43,805 nucleotides of DNA from an uncultured Clostridia bacterium (GCA_934746185.1 CAKVEY010000001.1:1-43805), one strand, 5' to 3'; positions 4,912 to 22,182 are shown, counted from the stretch's first letter. Numbers and translations: made by a program. The notes: generated by a model from the letters alone, not told the origin.

Positions 4912-7140
4912 TTATATTTTTGTTAACGGTGCTAAATTTAGCATCAATTCTTTAATACCAATTCTTTTAAAGTTAATTTTGCCCATATCACCATTTACCG
5001 ATAAAATAATTCCTTCGCCAAATTTAGTATGTAAAACTTTATCTCCCACCTTAAAATCTTTATCGTCAACAGATTTCATTTTAACTTCGGTGGCACTTTT
5101 AATAGTTTCATTTACATTATTAGGCACAGCAAAATCGTCTAATGAATTATTAAAACTTTTATAATTATTGTAAGAATTATAATTGTTTTTTTGATAGCCA
5201 TTATTGTAACTATCACTTTTTATGTAATTATTCTCATAAACTGGTTTTTCAAAACCTAAATCTTTAATATAACTAGACACTCTTTCATCGCGAGTATAGC
5301 CATACATAAATCTTCTTTTGCAACTAGATAGATATAGTCTTTCCATACCACGAGTTAAAGCAACATACATAAGTCTTCGTTCTTCTTCTTCATCGCAATC
5401 GCTATCTTGCCTATAAAGAGGAAAAATTCCATCTTCTAGCCCTATTATAAACACGCATTTAAACTCTAAGCCCTTACTTGCGTGCACTGTTGCAATAGTA
5501 ACGCAATCTTCATCTTCGTTATAACTATCCATATCGCTAACAAGAGTTACACTTTGTAAATAAGACGAAAGCGATGCGTCTTCGTTATTTTTGTAATATT
5601 CTTTAATAGATAAAACCAATTGTTCAATATTTAGCATTCGGTTTTTATCTTCTTCGTCTTTGTTTAAAAAACTTTCTAAATTTAATTTTTCAATAATATA
5701 TTCAACCAAATCGACTAAATTTAATTCATCTTTTTGCTTAATAAAATCTAAAAATAAATATTGAAGATTTAATAGTTTTGTTAAAGTTGCACCTTTTACA
5801 TCATAATTTTGTACATTTAACAAATTTTCAAGCATACTTTTAGAACTATCAAGAGCCTTTAAGTTTTCAATAGTTGCTTCACCAATATTTCGTTTAGGCC
5901 AGTTTGCAATTTTAGCAAAACTAACATCATCTTTAATGTTATTTAGCACTTTTAAATATGCTAAAAAGTTTTTAATTTCTAACCTATCATAGAACTTCAT
6001 ACCACCATATACACGATAGTTTATACCATAGTTTAAAAGTTTTTCTTCTATGTTCCTTGTAAGTGAGTTAAGTCTTACAAGCACGGCAATATCTTTATAA
6101 TTATAGTTATTAAAGTTATGTAGTGAATAAATTGTACTTGCCACATTTTCAGCTTCTTCTCTTTCATCATAGCACTTTTTATATTCAATTTGCTCACCAA
6201 GAGCATTATCTGTCCATAATTTTTTATCTATACGCTGAATATTTTTAGAAATAATTTTATTAGCGCCTTCAATAATTTTTTTAGTACTTCGATAATTTTG
6301 CTCTAACTTTATAATTTCAACATTATCAAAATCTTTTGTAAAGTTAGAAATATTTTTATAGTTTGCCCCTCTCCAACTATAAATACATTGGTCTTCATCG
6401 CCTACTACAAAAACATTGTTATCATTTCCTGCCAAAAGTTTAATAAAATCATATTGAATTTCGTTTGTATCTTGAAATTCATCTATTAAAATATGTTTAA
6501 ATTTATTTCTATAATATTTTAAAACATTTTCATTAATGCTTAAAAGCAAGTATGTTTTTTGTAGTAAATCATCAAAGTCAAAAGCGTTATTTTCACGCAT
6601 TTTATTTTCATATTTTTTTATAAACTCTATTATTTCTTCAATATCATTTTCAAAATAGTGGTCGTTTAAGTAGTTTTCTAAACTTTGAAATTTATTTTTA
6701 TAATTTGATATATGGAATAATAAATTTTTCTTAAACTTATCATCTTCAATTTTTTCATTTTTTAGTATTTCGGTTACAACTTTATTTTTATCTGCTTCGT
6801 CATAAATAGTAAAATTAGAATTATAGCCACTTAGTTTACTAGCATTTTCTCGTAAAATTCTAACACAACTAGAATGAAAAGTACTTATCCAAAGCCTTGA
6901 AACATTTAGTCCTTTTTTACTCAATCTTTCTTTCATAACACTACTTGCTTTGTTAGTAAAAGTTATTGCCAAAATATTATCGGGATTAATATATTTACAA
7001 TTTATTAAATTTAAAATTCTTTCAGTTAAAACTCTTGTTTTTCCACTACCTGCACCAGCTGTTACTAAAATATGTTTGCTATTTGATAAAACAGCAATTT
7101 TTTGCATTTCATTAAGTTTTAAATTTAAAAAATTTTCCAT
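4912..7140 (-). CDS. pcrA: ATP-dependent DNA helicase PcrA/UvrD family
   Basis: 742 aa. Walker A AGAGSGKT, DEFQDTN, the VGDEDQCIYSWRGA and TVHASKGLEF motifs, and the C-terminal KVGDKVLHTKFGEG tail typical of PcrA. Confidence 0.9.
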   Translation of the reverse strand: MENFLNLKLNEMQKIAVLSNSKHILVTAGAGSGKTRVLTERILNLINCKYINPDNILAITFTNKASSVMKERLSKKGLNVSRLWISTFHSSCVRILRENASKLSGYNSNFTIYDEADKNKVVTEILKNEKIEDDKFKKNLLFHISNYKNKFQSLENYLNDHYFENDIEEIIEFIKKYENKMRENNAFDFDDLLQKTYLLLSINENVLKYYRNKFKHILIDEFQDTNEIQYDFIKLLAGNDNNVFVVGDEDQCIYSWRGANYKNISNFTKDFDNVEIIKLEQNYRSTKKIIEGANKIISKNIQRIDKKLWTDNALGEQIEYKKCYDEREEAENVASTIYSLHNFNNYNYKDIAVLVRLNSLTRNIEEKLLNYGINYRVYGGMKFYDRLEIKNFLAYLKVLNNIKDDVSFAKIANWPKRNIGEATIENLKALDSSKSMLENLLNVQNYDVKGATLTKLLNLQYLFLDFIKQKDELNLVDLVEYIIEKLNLESFLNKDEEDKNRMLNIEQLVLSIKEYYKNNEDASLSSYLQSVTLVSDMDSYNEDEDCVTIATVHASKGLEFKCVFIIGLEDGIFPLYRQDSDCDEEEERRLMYVALTRGMERLYLSSCKRRFMYGYTRDERVSSYIKDLGFEKPVYENNYIKSDSYNNGYQKNNYNSYNNYKSFNNSLDDFAVPNNVNETIKSATEVKMKSVDDKDFKVGDKVLHTKFGEGIILSVNGDMGKINFKRIGIKELMLNLAPLTKI

Positions 7141-7266: not shown

Positions 7267-8235
7267 ATGTTAGATATTATTTATAGCAAAGTTTTAAAAT
7301 ATTTTAACGAAACAACAAAGTTGGGTTTATCAACTGAAAGTCAAGAAAAATTAGTTAACAATTATATAGCAAAAATTTATAAAAATTTTATTCCAACGCG
7401 AGATTTTTATGTAATAAGTTATGCTAATAAAGACAATTTAAAACAATATTCACAAGCATATTATGATAAATACACAAACACTTTTTTAGCACAAGATTTG
7501 CAAAAATTTAATAATGAAGAATTTAAAAAAGTTTTTGTAAGAACTGGTTTTTTAACTTTTAAAGATATTCTTATGAATCAATTAACTATTGCTTACTATA
7601 AAGAAGGCGTTAAAAGTTTAATTAAACTTTTACGAAAATGTGGTTACGACATTGAGCAAGTAAATTACTTTTTATCACAATTTAAAAATAATGATTCAAA
7701 TACTGACACTAACACAAATACAAACTCAAAGAAAAATGAAACCGAAGATAAAAAACCTGCAAGTCTTATGGACGCAGTATATAAAGATATTCGTAACTTC
7801 TTTTTACAAAATTATCTTTCAACAAGCCCTTTTAGAGTGGTTAATGTAAATCATCACAGCGAAAGCGTTTGCTATGATATTTTTACTAATGGTTATAGTG
7901 ATAGACATCTTTACGTTATTAAAGACAATATAACAAAAGAATATATGCAATGTTTTTATGATAAAAAGATAAAAAAATATATAACACAAAATTCAAGGAC
8001 ATTAGACAAAAAAGAATTTAAAAAACTATATGTTAGAAAAGGTTGTTTAAATTTTGATGAACTTAGATATAATGTTGGTTTAGAAATTTATAAGAAACAA
8101 GGTGAAGATACCTGCTTTAAATGGTTAAGAAAATGGCTAAACGAACCACAAGTTTATATTATTATAGAAAACTATAAATCAAACCTAATAGATACACCTT
8201 TAAGTGAGAATATAAACGAAGAATATACAAAATAA
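7267..8235 (+). CDS. Hypothetical protein built from two tandem copies of an unknown ~140-aa domain
   Basis: 322 aa with its own promoter and terminator. The two halves align: RDFYVISYANKDNLKQYSQAYYDKY...EEFKKVFVRTGFLTFKDIL...LLRK against RHLYVIKDNITKEYMQCFYDKK...KEFKKLYVRKGCLNFDEL...WLRK. A T/N/D-rich linker joins them. Confidence 0.7.
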   Translation: MLDIIYSKVLKYFNETTKLGLSTESQEKLVNNYIAKIYKNFIPTRDFYVISYANKDNLKQYSQAYYDKYTNTFLAQDLQKFNNEEFKKVFVRTGFLTFKDILMNQLTIAYYKEGVKSLIKLLRKCGYDIEQVNYFLSQFKNNDSNTDTNTNTNSKKNETEDKKPASLMDAVYKDIRNFFLQNYLSTSPFRVVNVNHHSESVCYDIFTNGYSDRHLYVIKDNITKEYMQCFYDKKIKKYITQNSRTLDKKEFKKLYVRKGCLNFDELRYNVGLEIYKKQGEDTCFKWLRKWLNEPQVYIIIENYKSNLIDTPLSENINEEYTK

Positions 8236-8261
8236 AAAATCGTAATTTTTACGATTTTTTT
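8234..8261. terminator. Rho-independent terminator between convergent genes
   Basis: aaaaaatcgtaa-ttt-ttacgatttttt: a hairpin flanked by an A-run and a T-run, so it can act in both directions. Confidence 0.6.
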
Positions 8262-13060: not shown

Positions 13061-13708
13061 CTAAACATTAATAATATCATTAAAATCTATGTAAAAATCT
13101 TTTGTATTATTTTTGTTATAATAAACGGCAACTTTTTTATTTAGAATGTTATAATTAGTTAGTTTATTTGTTTTTTTATTAAAAAACAAAACTTCACCAT
13201 TATTGTCATAAGCACATTCAATAGTTAAAGGTGCGCCGTTTACATTATTTTGTTTAGATATATTAACTATTTTTGCATAAATTTTGTTGCCTTCGCCTGC
13301 AAGCCTTAAAAACTTACTTTTTTGCTTTAAAAATGAAATTAAAATTACGCTATCTACAATCAATAAAATTACAGCAAATACACTTGTAATAGATGGGAAA
13401 ATATACAAAAAACTTTCAGTATATGCATCATTTAAAGTAGTTGGATTATAATAAATTTTTATTTTTTGACCTTCTTTCCACCAACTAACATATTCATTTA
13501 ATCTCATTTCATAATTTTCTTCATTAACCGAAAAAGAAACATACACATCTTCGTCTTCGGTGATTCTTGTAATAGTGGATTCGACTAAAACATAGTTGTT
13601 TTTTATTGTTAATGAACGATTTAATCCTAAAATAGAAGTTACCAAACAAATAACACAAAAAAATGACACCATTATTAAACAAATTTTTTTGCTTTTACTC
13701 ATTTTCAT
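13061..13708 (-). CDS. Membrane protein, DUF3592-like
   Basis: An N-terminal TM helix, a beta-rich segment ending KIKIYYNPTT, a second TM helix, then a second soluble domain. The start is set at ATG 13708 (MKMSKSKK), preceded by GGTGAT. It overlaps the rpiB 3' end. Confidence 0.55.
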   Translation of the reverse strand: MKMSKSKKICLIMVSFFCVICLVTSILGLNRSLTIKNNYVLVESTITRITEDEDVYVSFSVNEENYEMRLNEYVSWWKEGQKIKIYYNPTTLNDAYTESFLYIFPSITSVFAVILLIVDSVILISFLKQKSKFLRLAGEGNKIYAKIVNISKQNNVNGAPLTIECAYDNNGEVLFFNKKTNKLTNYNILNKKVAVYYNKNNTKDFYIDFNDIINV

Positions 13709-14129
13709 TTTTATCACCATCTATGCTTTTTATTCTTTCTAAATGTCTTCCACCAGCAAAAGGAGTGAATAAAAAGTTTTTAACCATTTTTTTATATAAA
13801 AAACTTTTTCCTTTTAAAACAAGAACATTACAATCGTTATGCTCTCTACAAAGTTTACTTGCTTTTGGATTATAGCAAAGCCCTGCCCTTATGCCTTTAA
13901 AACGATTAGCGACAATACTCATACCTATGCCACTTTTGCAAATTAAAATACCTTTGTTTTCAGGGTCTTGTAAAACTTTTTCGCACAAAATCTTTCCAAA
14001 ATCAACATAACTAACACTTTTTAAACTATTTGTGCCTAAATCTTCATATTTTAAATTTATTTTAGACAAATATTTTTTAATTTTTTCTTTTAATAAATAA
14101 CCACCGTGGTCGCTTGCTAAATATATCAT
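13695..14129 (-). CDS. rpiB: Ribose-5-phosphate isomerase B (RpiB/LacAB family)
   Basis: 144 aa. Motifs MIYLASDHGG, ILICKSGIGMSIVANR and CREHNDCNVL. Confidence 0.9.
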   Translation of the reverse strand: MIYLASDHGGYLLKEKIKKYLSKINLKYEDLGTNSLKSVSYVDFGKILCEKVLQDPENKGILICKSGIGMSIVANRFKGIRAGLCYNPKASKLCREHNDCNVLVLKGKSFLYKKMVKNFLFTPFAGGRHLERIKSIDGDKNENE

Positions 14130-14181
14130 ATTAATATTATATTAATTTTAAAATTAATTAACAAATATTTTTTACTACTTT

Positions 14182-14211
14182 AAAAAAATTGATGAAAGAA
14201 TTTTTCACCAA
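14182..14211 (-). terminator. Rho-independent terminator closing the kinase-topoisomerase operon
   Basis: The minus-strand RNA is UUGGUGAAA-AAUUC-UUUCAUCAA followed by U7. It starts 11 nt after the A-subunit stop. Confidence 0.6.
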
Positions 14212-14221
14212 TTTTATTATT

Positions 14222-17044
14222 TTATTGTTTAATTTCAAAAATACTAGTTAATTCTATTAATTTTCGGTCTTTAATTAAAATATTTCCTTTATTAACTCTA
14301 TTAGAAACTAAAATGTTTGAAGAATCTACAATATAGTTTTTGTTTTTATTATCTGTAACAAATAAGTCAAAATCTGTGCTTAAAATAGTGGCATAAACAA
14401 TTTTGTCACCTGTGCTATCGCCTAAACTATAAACTTTAACACCTTTTCGGCTTCGAGAAAGTAGTTCAAAGTTAGATAAATCAACTTTTTTAGAATAGCC
14501 TTTATTTGTTATAACTAAAACATTTTCTTTATCTACTTGACCAGCAAACACAACAAAATCGCCATCATTCAAACTAATTCCTTTAACGCCTTGTGCTGTT
14601 TTACTAGTTAGTGGAATATCATCGCTTTTTGCATACAAACTCATTCCACAAGACGAAATAAACATTAAGTTCTTTTTGTTAAAGATTTCAATATTAATTA
14701 CTTCATCATCTTTAAGTTTAATGTAACTAGATATATTTTTAGAAATGTTAAATTCATCACCACTAGTTAGTTTAACTAAACCACCCTTTGTATAGAATAT
14801 TAAAGTTTGTTTAAACAACTTTTCATTTTCTTCAAAAACTTTAATAACTTTTTCTTCTGGGTTAAAACCTACAATCAAATCTTTTAAGAATATTCCCCTA
14901 TCTTTAAATCGTGCTTCAATAATTTTATCTACACTTAATTTATACATATTCCCTAAATTAGTGAATATTAAAATGTTTTTATCGCTTGAAGTTAATAGAA
15001 TATTTGAATGAATTTCATTTAATGTGCTTTTTTCATCAAAAATTTTAGGATATTTTAGATAAGTTTTTTCTGGAATTTTTTTGATTGCTTGTTTTTGAGT
15101 AGTTAAAACATAATATGGTTTTACAACTTTTATTATATCGTCTTCACTTATTTCACCACATTCTTTTATAATGTTAGTTTTTCGTTTAGAACCATATTTT
15201 TTCTTTATTTCTTCCATTTCTTCTTTAACAATTTTGTATTGAAGTTTATCGCTATGAACAATTTTTGTTAATTTATCAATTAATTTTAATAATTCTGCTA
15301 TTTCGGCTCTTAATTTTTCAACTTCCAAATTAGTTAATCTACTTAAACGCATATCTAAAATTGCTTGCGCTTGTCGTTCACTTAAATCGTAACGGTCTCT
15401 TAAAGTGTGTTTCGCTTCAACAGTTGATGCACTATTTTTTATTATTTTAACAATTTCATCTATGTTTTCAATAGCAATAATTAATCCGTGCAAAATATGT
15501 TCTTTTTCTTTTGCCACATTTAAGTCGTAAGTCGTTCGTTTTAAAATAATATCTTTTTGATAACGAGTGTAATAACCTAATATATCTTTTAATGTTAATA
15601 ATTTAGGTTTGCCATCGGCTATTGCCATCATATTAATACCAAAAGTTACTTGTAAATCTGTATATTTATATAAATAATTGATTATTTTTTGTGGGTCTGT
15701 GCCACCTTTTAAGGTTATAACCCCTCTTATGCCTTGTCTTCCACTTTCATCTCTAATATCTGTAATGCACGATAAAGTGTCCTTATTATTTTCTTTTAAT
15801 TCACTTATTTTGTGCAAGCATAGCGCTTTATTTACGCCATAAGGAAACTCACTTATAATTAAGTTAATTTTATCTGTTTTTGTGGTTTCTACATCAATTT
15901 TAGCACGAAGTATAACTTTTCCTTTACCTGTTTCGTACGCTTGTTTAACTTCGTTTAATCCTACAATAACACCACCAGTTGGAAAATCAGGACCTTTTAA
16001 AATTTGCATCAATTCATCAACTGTAATGTTTGGGTTATCTATATAAGCCGTGCAAGCATCAATACTTTCAGCTAAATTATGGCTAGCAAATTTAGTTGCT
16101 ATACCTACTGCTATGCCCATATTACCATTTACTAATATGTTAGGAAAACGACTAGGAAGTGTATCTGGTTCTAAAAGTTTATCATCGTAGTTTAAACTCC
16201 ATTTAACAGTATCTTTATCTATATCTCTTAAAAGTTCTAAACTTAAATCTTTTAGTTTTGCTTCTGTATAACGATAAGCTGCTGCACCATCGCCGTCCAT
16301 AGAACCAAAGTTGCCGTGTCCATAAACTAATGGTTCTCGCATATTGAAATCTTGTGCAAGTTTTACCATAGCATCATAAACAGATGTATCTCCGTGTGGG
16401 TGATATTTGCCGATGACATCACCAACTATTGTTGCCGATTTTCTAAAAGGTTTATCAGGGGTTAAACCTTGTTCGTACATATCGTAAATAATTCTTCGTT
16501 GTACTGGCTTCAAACCATCTTCAACTCGAGGTAAAGCTCTATCTAAAATAACATATTCGGAATATGGCATCATTGCTTCATTCATAACTTGTTTAATGCT
16601 TTTTAGAATATTGCCTTCGGCGTCTTTTTCAATGTTATCACTATTATTTCCGTTAAAATTGTCATCAATAGAAATAAAATCGTTATTAAACGAATTATCG
16701 CCAATTGTATTATTATTTATTTCGTTTTGCTCGTCAAAATTTAAACTTTCACTATCTACAACATATTCGTTTAAATCTTCAAGTTGTTTTTTCTTTTTAT
16801 ATTCGGTTACTCGTTTAGATACTTTTGGTGCAGAAATTTCTTTTTCAACTATTTTTTCTACTTTAATTTCTTTTTTATCACTCTTTTTACTTGTTGACGA
16901 TTTTTTAGCACTTATTTCTTTTTTTGTTTCTGTTTTAGGATTTTTACTATTTAAAACTAAATCATCAAACATCATTTGATTTTTTTGTGGAGTTTTATTA
17001 TCGTCTAAATTTTCATCATCTAAATCTCTTTCGTCAAAAATCAT
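14222..17044 (-). CDS. parC: Type IIA topoisomerase subunit A (ParC-like, no GyrA box) with a ~150-aa low-complexity N-terminal extension
   Basis: 940 aa. The conserved core starts near [27 protein letters not shown]. The catalytic region [11 protein letters not shown] is present. The C-terminal beta-pinwheel region has no QRRGGKG GyrA box. The start ATG 17044 overlaps the B-subunit TGA (ATGA) and follows a strong SD (GGAGGAG), so the extension is very likely translated. Confidence 0.88.
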
Positions 17045-19260
17045 TTTCTCTCCTCCATAAATTCATCAATTCTGTTAAAGTTTGCATTTTGTGTTATATA
17101 ATTTTTTCTTGCTTCAATATCATCGCCCATCCAAGTAGTTATAAACTTTTCAGCTTCTATTGCATCATCAATTGTAACCTTAATTAATTTTCGGTTTTTA
17201 GGGTCCATAGTAGTTTCCCATAATTGTTCTGGGTCCATTTCGCCTAATCCTTTATATCGTTGAACTTCGTAGCCTTTCCCTAATGTAGTTTTAGCATCTT
17301 CTAAATCTTGGTCTGTATAAGCATAAATCACTTTATCTTTTTTATAAACTTTATAAAGTGGTGGCATACCTAAAAACACGTGTCCCTCTTTAATAAGTTC
17401 AAGCATATATCTATAAAAGAATGTTAATAAAATGGCTTTAATGTGTCCACCATCTTGGTCGGCATCCGACAAAATTATTATTTTATGATATTTTAAACTA
17501 TTTATATCAAAATTTTCGGCAATTCCTGTGCCTAATGCACTAATTATTGTTTGTATTTCTTCGTTTTGAAGTGCTTGTTCTAGTCTTTTCTTTTCAACAT
17601 TTAGTGGTTTTCCTCTTAGTGGCAAAATTGCTTGAAAAAATCTATCACGACCTTGTTTAGCGCTACCACCAGCAGAATCGCCCTCTACTATAAACACTTC
17701 GTTAAGTTCGGCTTTTCTACCTGTACAAGCAGCAAATTTGCCTATTAAGTTAAAAGTTTCGGCGTTGTTTTTATGACGAGAAAGTTCTTTCGCTTTTTTA
17801 ACATTCTCTCTTGTTTTAGCTGCTTGCTTTGCCTTATTTATTATAATTTCAAAGTTCTTTTTGTTTTCATTTTTTACTAAAAGTTTTTCTAGTTCTGTGT
17901 AAACAATATTTTCAACTTCGGGTTTTGCTTCAGGATTACCTAATTTTGCTTTAGTTTGACCTTCAAATTGAACATTACGCATATTTATTGATAAAACTAC
18001 GGTTAAACCTTCTCTAAAATCATCTCCTAATAAATTAGGTTCTTTATCTTTTAAAAAATTGTATTTACGCGCTGTTTCATTAAAAATTCTAGTTAATGCA
18101 CTCTTAAAACCTGTTTCGTGCGTTCCACCTTCGTTTGTTGGAATGTTGTTTACAAACGAATAAAAATTTTCAACATATTCGTCTGTGTGAATAAACGATG
18201 CTTTAACTTTTACAATATCACTTTCGCCTTCTAAATAAAATGGATTAGCATATAAAGCTTTTTTGTTTGCAGTTATATCTAAAACAAAATCTTTAATGCC
18301 ACCATCAAACTTAAATTGCTTTACAAAAGTTTTTTCATCTCTTTCATCAATAAAGTTAATAATTAAGCCTTTGTTTAAATATGCTAGTTCTTTAAGTTTA
18401 TTGTAAATAACTTCTCTATTAAATGATAAATCTTTAAAAACTCGTTTATCAGGTAAAAAATGTACTTTTGTACCAGTTTCTTTTGTTTCGCCAATTTCTT
18501 TTAAATGAGTTTTTATAATACCACTTTTTATTACGCCGTTTACAACTTTACTTTCAAATTCGGCATAATATACTTTACCATCTCTTTTAACGGTTACATT
18601 AAACCATTCACTTAAAGCGTTTGCAACACTAGCACCAACGCCGTGTAATCCACCAGAATATTTATAATTATCACTTTCAAACTTACCACCAGCGTGAAGT
18701 TGAGTATAAACAACTTCTACACCACTTATTTTAAGTTTTGGGTGAATATCAACTGGAACACCACGACCATTATCTTCTACACTACAACTGCCATCTTTAT
18801 ATAAAGTTACAGTTATTTTATTGCCATAGCCATTAGAAATTTCATCAATCGAGTTATCAATAATTTCCCAAAGCAAATGATGATAACCTTTACTTCCCGT
18901 AGTTCCTATATACATACCGGGTCGCATTCTAACAGCATCTAACCCTTCTAAAACTTCTATATCTTTTGCATTATAACTTTTAGCCAAAGTATTTTCTAAA
19001 ATTTCATAATCATTTTGAGAATTTTCTCCAATTTTTTTCAAAATATCATTTCTAACCTTAACCTTATCTAAAAACTCAGTTTTAAAAAACGGAAAAATCT
19101 CTTTGCTTTTTAAGTTTTCGCTATTTGCTAAATTATATAAAATCAATCCACTAAATTTACTTAACGCTTCTTTCTCTTCTAATGAAGAATTATAGATATA
19201 TTCTCCATTTTCTCTTGTCAATATTCCAAGTTTATAATCTTTATAATATAAAACTACCAT
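17041..19260 (-). CDS. parE: Type IIA topoisomerase subunit B (ParE/GyrB family) fused to a ~95-aa N-terminal HipA-N/HipS-like domain
   Basis: 739 aa. From about aa 96 it is a canonical B subunit: [24 protein letters not shown], the GHKL ATPase ([27 protein letters not shown]) and the TOPRIM domain ([27 protein letters not shown]). Residues 1-95 ([24 protein letters not shown]...[33 protein letters not shown]) follow the HipA N-terminal pattern. The start ATG overlaps the kinase stop (TAATG) and follows an AAAGGAG SD. Confidence 0.88.
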
Positions 19261-20234
19261 TAAAACTGCTCCTTTACTTCGTCTTCAACATTTTTAATAC
19301 ATTGTTTGCATAGTTCAATGTCTAACTCTTTAATTCGTTTTTTAACAGCCATTATCATCGTTTCTTTATAAATTAACGGAAGTTCGCGTTTATAAATAGA
19401 GCACATAAATTCAATTTCTTTTTCAAAGTCTAATTCTTTAAATTTATTATATAAGTTCTGTAAAGGTTTATTTCTTAAAATTTCAGTTGCTAAATCTTTA
19501 ATTATTGCTTTATAAGGTTCGCTAGTTTTTTCTGTGTATTCTATATAAAATTTAGGTGCAAAACCTTTTTCGCACACATCAAGTTCACTATTTTCTTTAA
19601 ATGCTGTGTTAAACATATTTATACCTGCACTACTACAATCAAGGAATAAACAAAAACCATTATCAAACATAGGTGCTAATTTAATAACTTTATCATTAAC
19701 CTTGTTTTTTTCTATTAAAAATTCAATGTTATTTGCGTGTCTATCTCGTTGATATAATAAATAATCCATTAAAGCCATTTCTTTTAAATTTTGCTCTAAG
19801 TTTTTATCAATTTTTAAATTTTTTTCTTCGGCAAATTCTTTTACTAAACTAAGTGCTTCATTAACCGTGTATCCGTTTTGTTTTCTTCTGCCATAAATAG
19901 ATTTTATGCAAGAAAGCGAGATTGTTTCTTCAACATTCTTTGTTCGGTAATCTTCTATTAACGAACCATAAACTTCGGTGTCTTCAAAAACGCTTCTATG
20001 AAATATACTTTTTACAGCGTTGTAGCCAAGTAGATATGACAAATAACTTGTAAATACTTCGCCAAAATCACTATAATCATTATTAGTTGGCATTTTAAAA
20101 AGATATTTTTTATTTTTAGCATATAGCCAATATTTAGGACAAATGCCTGAAAGTCCATTTTCAATTTCTAAAACTTTTAATAATTTATTTTGTAATTTTT
20201 TAAATTCTTTTTTCAGTAAATCACTACTATTCAT
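19260..20234 (-). CDS. HipA-family serine/threonine kinase core (HipT-like; lacks the HipA N-terminal subdomain)
   Basis: 324 aa. Gly-rich loop GLSGICPKYWL..KKYLFKMP about 28 aa from the N-terminus, catalytic motif RDRHANNIEF (D-x-H-x-x-N), and LAPMFDNG (the Mg-binding DxG equivalent). No HTH (HipB-like) gene lies upstream. Confidence 0.8.
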   Translation of the reverse strand: MNSSDLLKKEFKKLQNKLLKVLEIENGLSGICPKYWLYAKNKKYLFKMPTNNDYSDFGEVFTSYLSYLLGYNAVKSIFHRSVFEDTEVYGSLIEDYRTKNVEETISLSCIKSIYGRRKQNGYTVNEALSLVKEFAEEKNLKIDKNLEQNLKEMALMDYLLYQRDRHANNIEFLIEKNKVNDKVIKLAPMFDNGFCLFLDCSSAGINMFNTAFKENSELDVCEKGFAPKFYIEYTEKTSEPYKAIIKDLATEILRNKPLQNLYNKFKELDFEKEIEFMCSIYKRELPLIYKETMIMAVKKRIKELDIELCKQCIKNVEDEVKEQF

Positions 20235-20240
20235 AGTTAT

Positions 20241-20269
20241 ATTATATATAAATAGTAAAAAATTGTCAA
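20241..20269 (-). promoter_or_regulatory. Consensus sigma-A promoter for the kinase-topoisomerase operon, with leaderless geometry
   Basis: Minus strand reads TTGACA (20269-20264), a 17-nt spacer, then TATAAT (20246-20241). Only 6 nt (ATAACT) separate the -10 from the kinase ATG at 20234, and there is no SD. Confidence 0.65.
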
Positions 20270-20330
20270 TGATAAAATTTTTTTATTTCATATAAAAACA
20301 AATTAAACATAAAATAATTATGGAGTGAGT

Positions 20331-21362
20331 ATGAAAAAAATTGTTTTTACTGGTGGTGGAACTGCTGGTCATATTATGCCGAATTTGGCAATTATAGAAG
20401 AAATAAAAAATAAAGCAAAAGTATATTATATTGGAAGCAACGGAATGGAAAAAGAATTAGTAAAAGATTATGATATTCCTTTTTATGAAATTCCTTCAAC
20501 CAAATTAAAAAGAAGTTTAAGTTTTAGTAATTTATTAATACCTTTTAAACTAATTAAAGCAATAAAAAAAGCCAAACAAATTTTAAAAGAAATTAGTCCT
20601 GATGTTATTTTTAGTAAAGGTGGATATGTTGCTTTGCCTGTTGTTTTTGCTGCCAAAAAACTTAAAATAAAAGTTATTTTGCACGAAAGCGATATGACAC
20701 TTGGATTAGCAAATAAATTATGTAAAAATAAATGCGAAACCATTTGTACAAGTTTTGAAAAAACAGCTGAGAATTTAAAAAACGGCTTGTTTACAGGTTC
20801 TCCCCTTCGCTCGCAAATTTTTAAAGGCAATAAAGAAAATGCCAAAAAACTATTTAAAAACTATAAAAATAAACCTACTATTTTGGTTGTTGGTGGAAGT
20901 CTTGGAAGCAAAATTATAAATGAAAATGTAAGAAAAAGTTTAGATAAATTAAAGGATTACAACATAATTCATTTGTGTGGAAAAAATAACCTAAGCAATA
21001 TAAAAAAAGATAATTATGTTGAACTTGAATTTGCAAATAATATAGAAGATTTATATGCACTATCAAATATAGTAATTTCTCGTGCTGGTAGTAATGTTAT
21101 TAATGAAATTTTAGCGTTAAATAAACCTAACATTTTAATTCCTTTATCTAAAAAAGCAAGTCGTGGTGACCAAATTTTAAATGCTAATTATTTTAAAGAA
21201 AAAGGATATAGCAAAGTTATTTTAGAAGAATACTTATCGCCAAATAGTTTGGTTAATTCTATAAATCAACTAAATAATGAAAAAGAAAAGTATATTCAAT
21301 CAATGCAAAAATCTAGTACAAAACTTGCAAATAAAAAAATAAGTGAACTACTTTTAAAATAA
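20331..21362 (+). CDS. murG: UDP-N-acetylglucosamine:lipid I N-acetylglucosaminyltransferase
   Basis: N-terminal GGGTAGH motif, and GGSLGS and RAG motifs in the C-terminal half. I prefer ATG 20331 (MKKIVFTGGGTAGH; GGAG 5 nt upstream) to the GTG at 20325. Confidence 0.9.
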   Translation: MKKIVFTGGGTAGHIMPNLAIIEEIKNKAKVYYIGSNGMEKELVKDYDIPFYEIPSTKLKRSLSFSNLLIPFKLIKAIKKAKQILKEISPDVIFSKGGYVALPVVFAAKKLKIKVILHESDMTLGLANKLCKNKCETICTSFEKTAENLKNGLFTGSPLRSQIFKGNKENAKKLFKNYKNKPTILVVGGSLGSKIINENVRKSLDKLKDYNIIHLCGKNNLSNIKKDNYVELEFANNIEDLYALSNIVISRAGSNVINEILALNKPNILIPLSKKASRGDQILNANYFKEKGYSKVILEEYLSPNSLVNSINQLNNEKEKYIQSMQKSSTKLANKKISELLLK

Positions 21363-21386
21363 AAAGTGCCAAATGGCACTTTTTTT
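21361..21386 (+). terminator. Rho-independent terminator of murG
   Basis: aaaaagtgcc-aaat-ggcac followed by a T-run. It is the first of four consecutive small hairpins (21361-21461). Confidence 0.65.
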
Positions 21387-21486
21387 AGTTTTTTGCCTTT
21401 GGCAAAAATAATTAGCGTAAAATTTGTGCTATTGCACAAAAAGTTTTTTACTTCGTAAAAAGTTAAGTTTGCAAACAAAGTTATTG

Positions 21487-22182
21487 TTAATACAAATCTT
21501 TCAATTTGTCTTTTATATCTTTTAAAGCTTTTGTTTCTATTCGAGAAATATAACTACGACTTATTCCTAATTTTTTGGCAACTTCTAATTGCGTTAAACT
21601 AGGTGTATTATTTAATCCATATCGCATACAAATTATTTTAAATTCCCTTTCGGTTAAGTTTTCTTTTAAAATTTTTTGCAACTGTTCGCTAATAATTTTA
21701 TTCTCAACAATATTTGCTAATTCGTCTATATCGTTACCTAATACATCTTCAAGTGTTATATCATTGCCGTCTTTATCTTGCCCTAAACTCTCTTCTAATG
21801 AATATACTCCGTTATGCTTTTTATTTAGTCTTATAAGCATTAAAATTTCGTTTTCTATACATCGTGCTGCATAAGTTGATAGTTGCGTACCTTTATTTAG
21901 TTCGTATGTATTAATCGCTTTAATTAAGCCTATTGTGCCAACACTTATTAAATCATCAGCTTCTCCTGCTTGCGAATATTTTTTTACAATGTGTGCAACT
22001 AGTCTTAAATTATGATATATGAGCCTATTTTTTGCGTCTATATCGCCGTCATTTTTAAATTTTTTTATACATTCTAATTCTTCCTCGTTTGATAACGGAT
22101 TTGGAAATCCACTACTCTTTTGTACAAATGATGTAAAACACATCACTCTATTTAAAAAATTTACAAAAGTTTCGGTTATCAT
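21487..22182 (-). CDS. sigK: Sporulation sigma factor, pro-sigma-K type (uninterrupted)
   Basis: 231 aa. The hydrophobic pro-sequence ends in SGFPNPLS (Bacillus SigK has NAFPQPLS). Also HNLRLVAHIVKKY, AARCIENEILM and GQDKDGNDITLEDVLG, which match SigK better than SigE. The ORF is continuous, with no skin-type insertion. Confidence 0.8.
   Translation of the reverse strand: MITETFVNFLNRVMCFTSFVQKSSGFPNPLSNEEELECIKKFKNDGDIDAKNRLIYHNLRLVAHIVKKYSQAGEADDLISVGTIGLIKAINTYELNKGTQLSTYAARCIENEILMLIRLNKKHNGVYSLEESLGQDKDGNDITLEDVLGNDIDELANIVENKIISEQLQKILKENLTEREFKIICMRYGLNNTPSLTQLEVAKKLGISRSYISRIETKALKDIKDKLKDLY

Follow-up and report, generated by a model that had tools for sequence, protein, structure and literature searches.

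A kinase and HipS-like small-protein gene pair at the head of the parEC operon in a clade of gut Christensenellales, with a 60-nt in-frame deletion joining the small gene to parE on one contig

The kinase-parEC locus

The window analysed here is a contig of 43,805 nucleotides (nt) from an uncultured Clostridia bacterium (GCA_934746185.1, CAKVEY010000001.1). It carries an operon that starts with the gene for a predicted HipA/CtkA-type kinase, continues with a truncated gene for a HipS-like small protein and ends with parE- and parC-type genes for the two subunits of a topoisomerase. In the window the small gene and parE are joined in a single open reading frame (ORF) of 739 amino acids (aa), whereas relatives carry them as two separate genes. 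The features of the locus are as follows:

20269-20241, minus strand: promoter, TTGACA-17-TATAAT, sigma-70-type, scored 12/12 against the consensus
20234-19260, minus strand: kinase ORF, 324 aa
19260-17041, minus strand: fused ORF of 739 aa, HipS-like extension plus topoisomerase B subunit
18994..19260, minus strand: codons 1-89 of the HipS-like small-protein gene, full-length with 106 aa in relatives, truncated here
18988..18996, minus strand: deletion junction, consisting of the kept GAAAA copy and the remnant of the parE spacer, read as Asn-Thr
17041..18987, minus strand: parE-type B subunit proper, 648 aa in relatives, whose TTG start is the internal Leu92 here
17044-14222, minus strand: parC-type A subunit, 940 aa, with an N-terminal tail of about 145 aa at 16610-17044
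about 14182..14214, minus strand: probable intrinsic terminator (AU-rich hairpin and U-run) that ends the operon

An initial annotation of this DNA had described three overlapping genes between a consensus promoter and a terminator, and the motif AAAGGAG in front of the second gene. All of these elements were found again by ORF calls, a promoter scan and RNA folding. The kinase ORF and the 739-aa ORF share a TAATG overlap, the 739-aa ORF and parC an ATGA overlap, and AAAGGAG is the ribosome-binding site upstream of the 739-aa ORF. RNA folding gave a 13-bp terminator hairpin followed by U7 (dG -17.2 kcal/mol, z = -4), which was missed by a GC-biased pattern scan because its stem is AU-rich. We agree that the genes form a single operon with parE-parC, and we infer co-transcription of the kinase gene, the small gene, parE and parC from the sequence.

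Conservation of the operon and the deletion in the window

The usual form of the operon is seen in six contigs of the same species that stem from independent samples (L001-L006), with the order kinase (324 aa), small protein (106 aa), ParE (648 aa) and ParC (940 aa). In these contigs parE has its own AGGAGG and a TTG start 12 nt past the small gene. The order sigma factor gene, murG (divergent), kinase gene, small gene, parE, parC and rpiB extends across 20 loci, which comprise L001-L015 from genome and assembly searches and L028-L032 with the most divergent kinases. The corresponding genomes are assigned to Christensenellales, Christensenella, Catabacter and uncultured Clostridia and were assembled from metagenomes. 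At all 20 loci the small gene is separate (104-112 aa by ORF calls, 105-110 aa by the gene calls of the collection), and wherever downstream sequence exists it is followed by parE with a ribosome-binding site of its own. The gap between the two genes is only 12-24 nt including this site, and thus leaves no room for a separate parE promoter. Identity to the window proteins is 68-99% for MurG, 78-100% for ParE and 67-99% for ParC, and ranges from 36 to 100% for both the small protein and the kinase. According to these comparisons the pair of kinase and small-protein genes at the head of the parEC operon is stably and vertically inherited in a gut Christensenellales clade, which is a new arrangement. 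At one of the divergent loci (L028, 5213-6400) a run of N and apparent frameshifts affect the region of the ParC tail, so that the genes called there between parE and parC (67 and 254 aa) are probably artefacts.

Alignment of the DNA showed that the window lacks exactly 60 nt which are found in L001-L003 and L007; the gap occurs in the window only. An exact reconstruction identified the missing 60-mer as ATTATG...GGAGGAAAA, bounded by the 5-nt repeat GAAAA, and the surrounding DNA is colinear with and about 99% identical to that of same-species strains. The deletion takes away the stop codon of the small gene together with the 17 codons before it, and also AGGAGG, the ribosome-binding site of parE. 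The fused extension consequently comprises 91 residues, 89 from the small gene and two from the former spacer, and the TTG start codon of parE in the relatives stays in frame and is read as Leu92. Because the deletion is in frame, translation of ParE would be kept in the window with the parE ribosome-binding site gone. The prior chance of an in-frame deletion is one in three, and its occurrence here fits a viable variant.

The fused form was encountered nowhere else. When the 101-residue extension was used as query, all matches were stand-alone proteins with 104-106 aa. One of them, P0001, shares 99% identity with residues 1-89 of the window protein and goes on with ...EKLCKLNFDKFNFWLSNI and a stop. 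Within the protein collection the 739-aa product is present on one contig, the window's own, and all eight sequence variants of the small protein have 106 aa; an exact look-up of the chimera gave no other assembly. In the 90%-identity cluster of the window B subunit (18 members), 13 of the 14 other listed members have 648 aa and one has 628 aa. The fusion is likewise absent from the 20 related loci and from 37 word-index clusters, all of 100-151 aa. Furthermore, 1.84 billion cluster representatives were searched exhaustively with HMMER; of the 161 matches, the best 150 (43-399 aa) include none of topoisomerase size and are nearly all 100-150 aa long.

The fusion is thus an in-frame, microhomology-flanked deletion seen on one contig only. 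To judge from the sequences compared, it is a variant confined to a single strain or assembly and not an evolved domain architecture. This bears on the initial annotation, which had read the 739-aa ORF as a B subunit carrying a HipS-like domain by design and had proposed a search of related genomes for the same fusion. The open frame itself is real. Evolved design, on the other hand, found no support, as the small protein is encoded by a separate ORF in L001-L015 and L028-L032, followed by a ribosome-binding site and parE, and as the B subunit of the relatives begins behind AGGAGG at the TTG that corresponds to Leu92 of the window. The basis of models that give the fused B subunit a guard or docking function is therefore a mutation private to one contig, the 60-nt deletion.

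The deletion also affects the predicted fold of the small protein. It cuts the helix of residues 84-93, half of which is lost, and removes a confidently predicted terminal strand (residues 101-105) together with the nearly invariant L103, so that the HipS-like domain of the chimera is incomplete in the model. The window kinase has no private substitution, every substitution being also seen in other strains, and therefore no compensatory inactivation of the kinase is seen; compensatory kinase mutations in the fusion strain were considered and none is present. An unchanged kinase next to a truncated partner means either that the tethered partner works, that the kinase is non-toxic, that the deletion is very recent, or that it is an artefact.

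The start of the operon is conserved as well. The kinase ATG lies 6 nt past the end of the -10 box and has no ribosome-binding site upstream, so the kinase mRNA is probably leaderless. The promoter and an ATG 6-7 nt after the -10 box, again without ribosome-binding site, are kept in L001, L007, L009-L012, L014 and L015. We rejected this start as a special feature of the kinase, since the layout TATAAT-6 nt-ATG without ribosome-binding site occurs at 5-6 of the 36 ORFs of the window. Starts of this type are located at 7140, 12994, 14129, 20234 and 34569 (and 31954), all on the minus strand, and belong to pcrA, a U32 peptidase gene, rpiB, the kinase gene and polA. Leaderless first genes thus seem to be frequent in the organism.

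The neighbours of the operon in the window are housekeeping genes, namely murG (divergent) and genes for a sigma factor, rpiB, ligA, pcrA, a clpC-like gene and polA. A 219-aa predicted membrane protein without Pfam match is encoded at 13061-13720 and overlaps the 3′ end of rpiB (13695-14129) by 26 nt, both on the minus strand. No known RNA was detected by Rfam within 13500-21500.

The kinase, its small partner and related modules

The window kinase contains the motifs GLSGICPKY, RDRHANNIEF and LAPMFDNG. Its match to the Pfam family HipA_C (PF07804) is sub-threshold (24.7 bits against a cut-off of 30.5, E 2e-5); a precomputed PF07804 match exists for 11 of 28 representatives of the kinase family, and distant members score 20-29 bits. 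Nevertheless, G30, K34, K47, Q162, D164, R165, N169 and D191-N192 are invariant in 28 kinase sequences, and the profile of 28 members matches CtkA in the Protein Data Bank (PDB) with E 2.4e-4. The AlphaFold2 model of the kinase (mean predicted local distance difference test, pLDDT, 87) was compared with known structures by Foldseek, which gave CtkA with E 9e-10 (template modelling score, TM, 0.56-0.65), E. coli HipA with 3e-7 and the HipT proteins of E. coli and Legionella with 4e-6 to 1e-5, all at probability 1.00. By sequence and by fold the kinase is thus nearer to CtkA than to HipA or HipT. The PADLOC model PDC-M03A matches it nearly end to end (E 7e-17), NCBIfam gave no match for the kinase or the extension, and in PHROGs only weak families without assigned function were found. 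No Ser/Thr is conserved next to the Gly-rich loop across the family.

Based on these sequence and model comparisons, gene 1 is assigned as a Ser/Thr kinase core of the HipA/CtkA superfamily with the Gly-rich loop near the N-terminus and without N-subdomain 1. The HipA_C hallmarks and the missing N-terminal subdomain noted in the initial annotation are borne out by the invariant catalytic positions and the fold matches, with HipA_C itself below cut-off. The same holds for the absence of an adjacent helix-turn-helix (HTH) gene, as none lies between murG and the kinase gene.

Distant kinase homologues of 359-408 aa without a detected small partner are present in L023 (5407-6507), L024 (5488-6714) and L025 (3550-4629). 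Those of L023 and L025 lie 3-5 kb from parC. This proximity was considered as a second linkage and rejected, because the family is distant, a small partner is lacking and the genes are on the opposite strand; we take it as coincidence.

The AlphaFold2 model of the small protein (pLDDT 90) was searched against 350,542 PDB chains, and the top two Foldseek matches were the HipS chains of 7ab3 (E. coli HipBST) with probabilities of 0.90 and 0.38 (TM 0.39-0.53, E 0.1-0.5; the better one TM 0.51-0.53, E 0.1), with Shewanella HipA in rank 4. By hhalign, a profile of 109 sequences aligned colinearly over 87 columns with residues 2-93 of E. coli HipA (E 0.0015, probability 17%), and this alignment covers the motif S..LF.FF / TSDAVFNFF. 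The HipA sequence used had been verified against PDB entries. Couple_hipA (PF13657) was matched over profile positions 4-90 of 99 with 15.6-16.9 bits (cut-off 22.5, E 0.009-0.023), and the N-terminal part of PDC-M03B was matched weakly (E 0.013, positions 21-76 of a 245-position model). Taking into account also that it is always paired with a core kinase without N-subdomain 1, we regard it as quite likely that the small protein is a remote homologue of HipS and the HipA N-domain.

Pfam searches with longer or distant members of the small-protein family revealed no Couple_hipA, HIRAN or HipA_C domain, only occasional unrelated fusions. In P0228 (309 aa) a Tpt1/KptA RNA 2′-phosphotransferase domain and in P0211 (399 aa) a Sel1 repeat precedes the small-protein domain, and P0174 (269 aa) and P0187 (299 aa) have C-terminal extensions without known domain.

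The pair also exists outside the parEC operon. In L016-L022 a single small-protein gene (107-108 aa) stands behind one, two or three kinase genes (369-573 aa), and parEC is not in the vicinity. A terminator hairpin is located directly 3′ of the small gene in L017, L019 and L020. At every locus with a complete pair (L001-L022, L028-L032) the small gene adjoins a core kinase without N-subdomain 1. By these sequence criteria, kinase and small protein constitute a self-contained module of two genes that resembles hipJS and PDC-M03, in which the kinase gene comes before the small gene and no HTH gene is present. Two to three kinase paralogues (493-573 aa, with extra C-terminal regions) stand in tandem before the single small gene and its terminator in L017 (4274-7751), L019 (5974-9489) and L020 (2298-7239). 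In L016 the module is followed by a gene for an alpha/beta hydrolase of the Hydrolase_4 type (7363-8250, Pfam), an ORF of about this length occupies the corresponding position in L018 and L021, and a 40%-identical hydrolase is encoded between murG and parE in L036 (2153-3067), an outgroup locus without the module. The shared hydrolase may go back to an older common gene neighbourhood or be a coincidence.

Several described systems resemble the pair. In hipJS modules a short core kinase is followed by a HipS-like putative antitoxin without HTH partner (Gerdes, Baerentsen & Brodersen 2021, PMC8262856). With these modules the window shares the short core kinase, the Gly-rich loop near the N-terminus, the missing N-subdomain 1, the HipS-like gene downstream and the lack of an HTH gene; it differs from them in that its kinase is nearer to CtkA, lacks a conserved Ser/Thr by the Gly-rich loop and belongs to a module that is welded to parEC and vertically inherited. 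In the HipBST systems of E. coli O127:H6 and Legionella pneumophila (PMC10627512, PMC9325769) HipA is likewise split into a core kinase and a separate N-subdomain-1-like protein of about 100 aa, and HipS sits where HipA has N-subdomain 1 (PMC10627512). In structure the small protein is matched best by HipS chains, and HipT matches the kinase at E 4e-6. Here, however, the kinase gene precedes the small gene (the HipBST order is hipB-hipS-hipT), there is no HipB, the sequence similarity is sub-threshold and no Trp65-type plug is identifiable. PDC-M03 is a multi-gene phage defence candidate of PADLOC-DB v2 that was selected by 'guilt-by-embedding' (bioRxiv 10.1101/2024.01.29.577857). Its A component matches the kinase well and its B component the small protein weakly, as given above; yet the M03B models have about 245 aa compared to 106 aa here, and PDC systems were picked for embedding in defence loci, whereas the window locus lies among murG, a sigma factor gene, rpiB, ligA, pcrA and polA. 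CtkA (JHP0940) of Helicobacter pylori, finally, is the best profile and fold match of the kinase and has a similar length (about 325 aa), but shares only about 19% identity. CtkA is described as a secreted pro-inflammatory kinase, and we know of no HipS-like partner of it.

The topoisomerase and the role of the module

The B subunit is a complete ParE/GyrB-type protein, as already stated in the initial annotation; it comprises the domains HATPase_c, DNA_gyraseB, Toprim and GyrB_C and matches NCBIfam PRK05644 with 855 bits. The A subunit contains the domains DNA_topoisoIV and GyrA_C. The equivalog cut-offs of gyrB and parE are both missed by the window B subunit, and no GyrA-box pattern was found in the A subunit. 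The assignment as topoisomerase IV rather than a second gyrase rests on this missing GyrA box.

A comparison of the ParC starts of the window, L010, L011-L014, L028 and L031 showed that the tail of about 145 aa begins with an invariant MIFDERD(L/I)..P.KNQ(M/L).F(D/E)D and continues as a variable charged linker rich in K/E/N. The tail looks like a tethered short linear motif. A ParE-based scan of metagenome contigs, which reached a best identity of 62% and did not sample the clade itself, provided 80 outgroup loci (ParE 47-62% identical), and in none of the 80 was a kinase or small gene found within 3.5 kb. The tail is absent in the 20 outgroup loci listed, where ParC aligns only from query residue 107-153. 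In outgroup L036, for example, the order is murG, hydrolase gene, parE and parC, with a ParC of 815 aa without tail.

We consider it probable that the window holds a four-gene operon with a hipJS/PDC-M03-type module at its head and a private deletion. In this case one consensus promoter would drive a leaderless core kinase of the HipA/CtkA type. The small protein would dock where HipA carries N-subdomain 1 and, in analogy with HipS and HipT, would hold the kinase inactive; having a ribosome-binding site, in contrast to the leaderless kinase mRNA, it might be made in excess. If the inhibitor were lost or overwhelmed, the kinase would phosphorylate an essential target and growth would be arrested. 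In the window, deletion between the two GAAAA repeats would have produced a HipS(1-89)-ParE chimera translated from the start of the small gene. Both the toxicity of the kinase and its inhibition by the small protein we infer by analogy. With the S. aureus mazEF genes upstream of the sigB operon there is a precedent for core genes that share their transcript with a toxin-antitoxin pair, and with FicT toxins, which adenylylate GyrB and ParE, one for the post-translational inactivation of type IIA topoisomerases. The enzyme families differ, however, and in the literature searched neither a Hip kinase linked to topoisomerase IV or another topoisomerase nor an antitoxin of CtkA was found.

Several observations weigh against this account. 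The similarity of the small protein to HipS is remote, with a sub-threshold Pfam score and a Foldseek E of 0.1 at a TM of about 0.5. Couple_hipA is matched by only 1 of 16 small-protein members at E < 1, and profiles of 16 and of 109 sequences found neither HipS nor HipA among the PDB sequences, so that sequence alone cannot establish the homology. The HipS-like extension proposed in the initial annotation finds support in the model and in the hhalign match, and its Pfam match stays below cut-off. Moreover, the window kinase is unchanged although its partner is truncated. Typical toxin-antitoxin or defence modules are patchy and mobile, and the strict synteny in a housekeeping region, with the kinase down to 36% identity, fits a domesticated role better than such a module.

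A domesticated role could mean that the kinase and its HipS-like partner, rather than being a selfish toxin-antitoxin pair, act as a switch in which phosphorylation of ParE or ParC, for instance of the ParC tail, tunes decatenation or stops it during stress or an attack by phages. The fusion of the window would in that case only link proteins that come into contact anyway. In favour of such a switch, content and order of the four-gene unit are constant across the clade, with kinase identity down to 36-55% and the catalytic residues invariant. The short gap in front of parE has no room for a promoter of its own, and the window strain lives with the tethered partner without any change in its kinase. 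The ParC tail with its invariant MIFDERDL occurs in the same clade, and the outgroup has neither the tail nor the kinase or small gene (0/80). The module and the tail each arose once, however, so that their co-occurrence is a single phylogenetic observation. Retention could also have a simpler cause: the module sits between essential genes and their only promoter, and could hardly be lost without death of the cell. In addition, the pair is found elsewhere as an operon with its own terminator and no parEC, where it resembles a defence or toxin-antitoxin cassette, PADLOC links the kinase to a family of phage-defence candidates, and characterised Hip kinases target aminoacyl-tRNA synthetases (PMC8262856), with no topoisomerase link found in the literature. 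On balance we regard a switch of this kind, and with it a dedicated link to the topoisomerase, as unlikely. The more specific version, a lineage-specific regulator that phosphorylates ParE or the ParC tail with the HipS-like protein as brake, is rather improbable, and a looser link of the kinase with topoisomerase IV is possible.

The two other explanations concern the fusion itself. That the 60-nt gap is an assembly or consensus error of a metagenome-assembled contig, and that no cell contains the fusion, agrees with the single contig lacking a second observation and with a kinase that is unchanged although its presumed inhibitor is damaged. A clean in-frame loss of 60 nt at a 5-nt repeat in colinear, 99%-identical DNA is, however, typical of replication slippage and, in our judgement, not of errors in de Bruijn or long-read assembly, and an in-frame loss is what a living variant needs; we therefore hold an artefact to be distinctly unlikely. 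The evolved HipS-topoisomerase fusion of the initial annotation, in which the B subunit itself would provide antitoxin activity for guarding or docking, could draw on the open frame with its strong ribosome-binding site and on a deletion that is in frame, as a viable variant needs once the parE ribosome-binding site is gone. Against this stand its singleton status among the sampled relatives and databases, the truncated HipS-like fold and the microhomology-deletion signature of the junction, which leave it with hardly any probability.

If the kinase were indeed directed at the topoisomerase, a Hip-family kinase would for the first time be tied to DNA topology instead of translation, and the chimera of truncated HipS-like protein and ParE would show that the partners tolerate tethering. 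The fused allele represents a natural experiment on whether a truncated, tethered HipS-like domain can restrain its kinase. Returning to the four-gene operon with its autonomous two-gene module, a very divergent split-HipA module has kept its position downstream of the promoter and upstream of the topoisomerase IV genes in a whole clade of gut Christensenellales. For modules of the hipJS and PDC-M03 type, the locus offers a tractable case in which a role as toxin, defence system or persistence switch, and its co-option for the control of an essential DNA enzyme, may be addressed.

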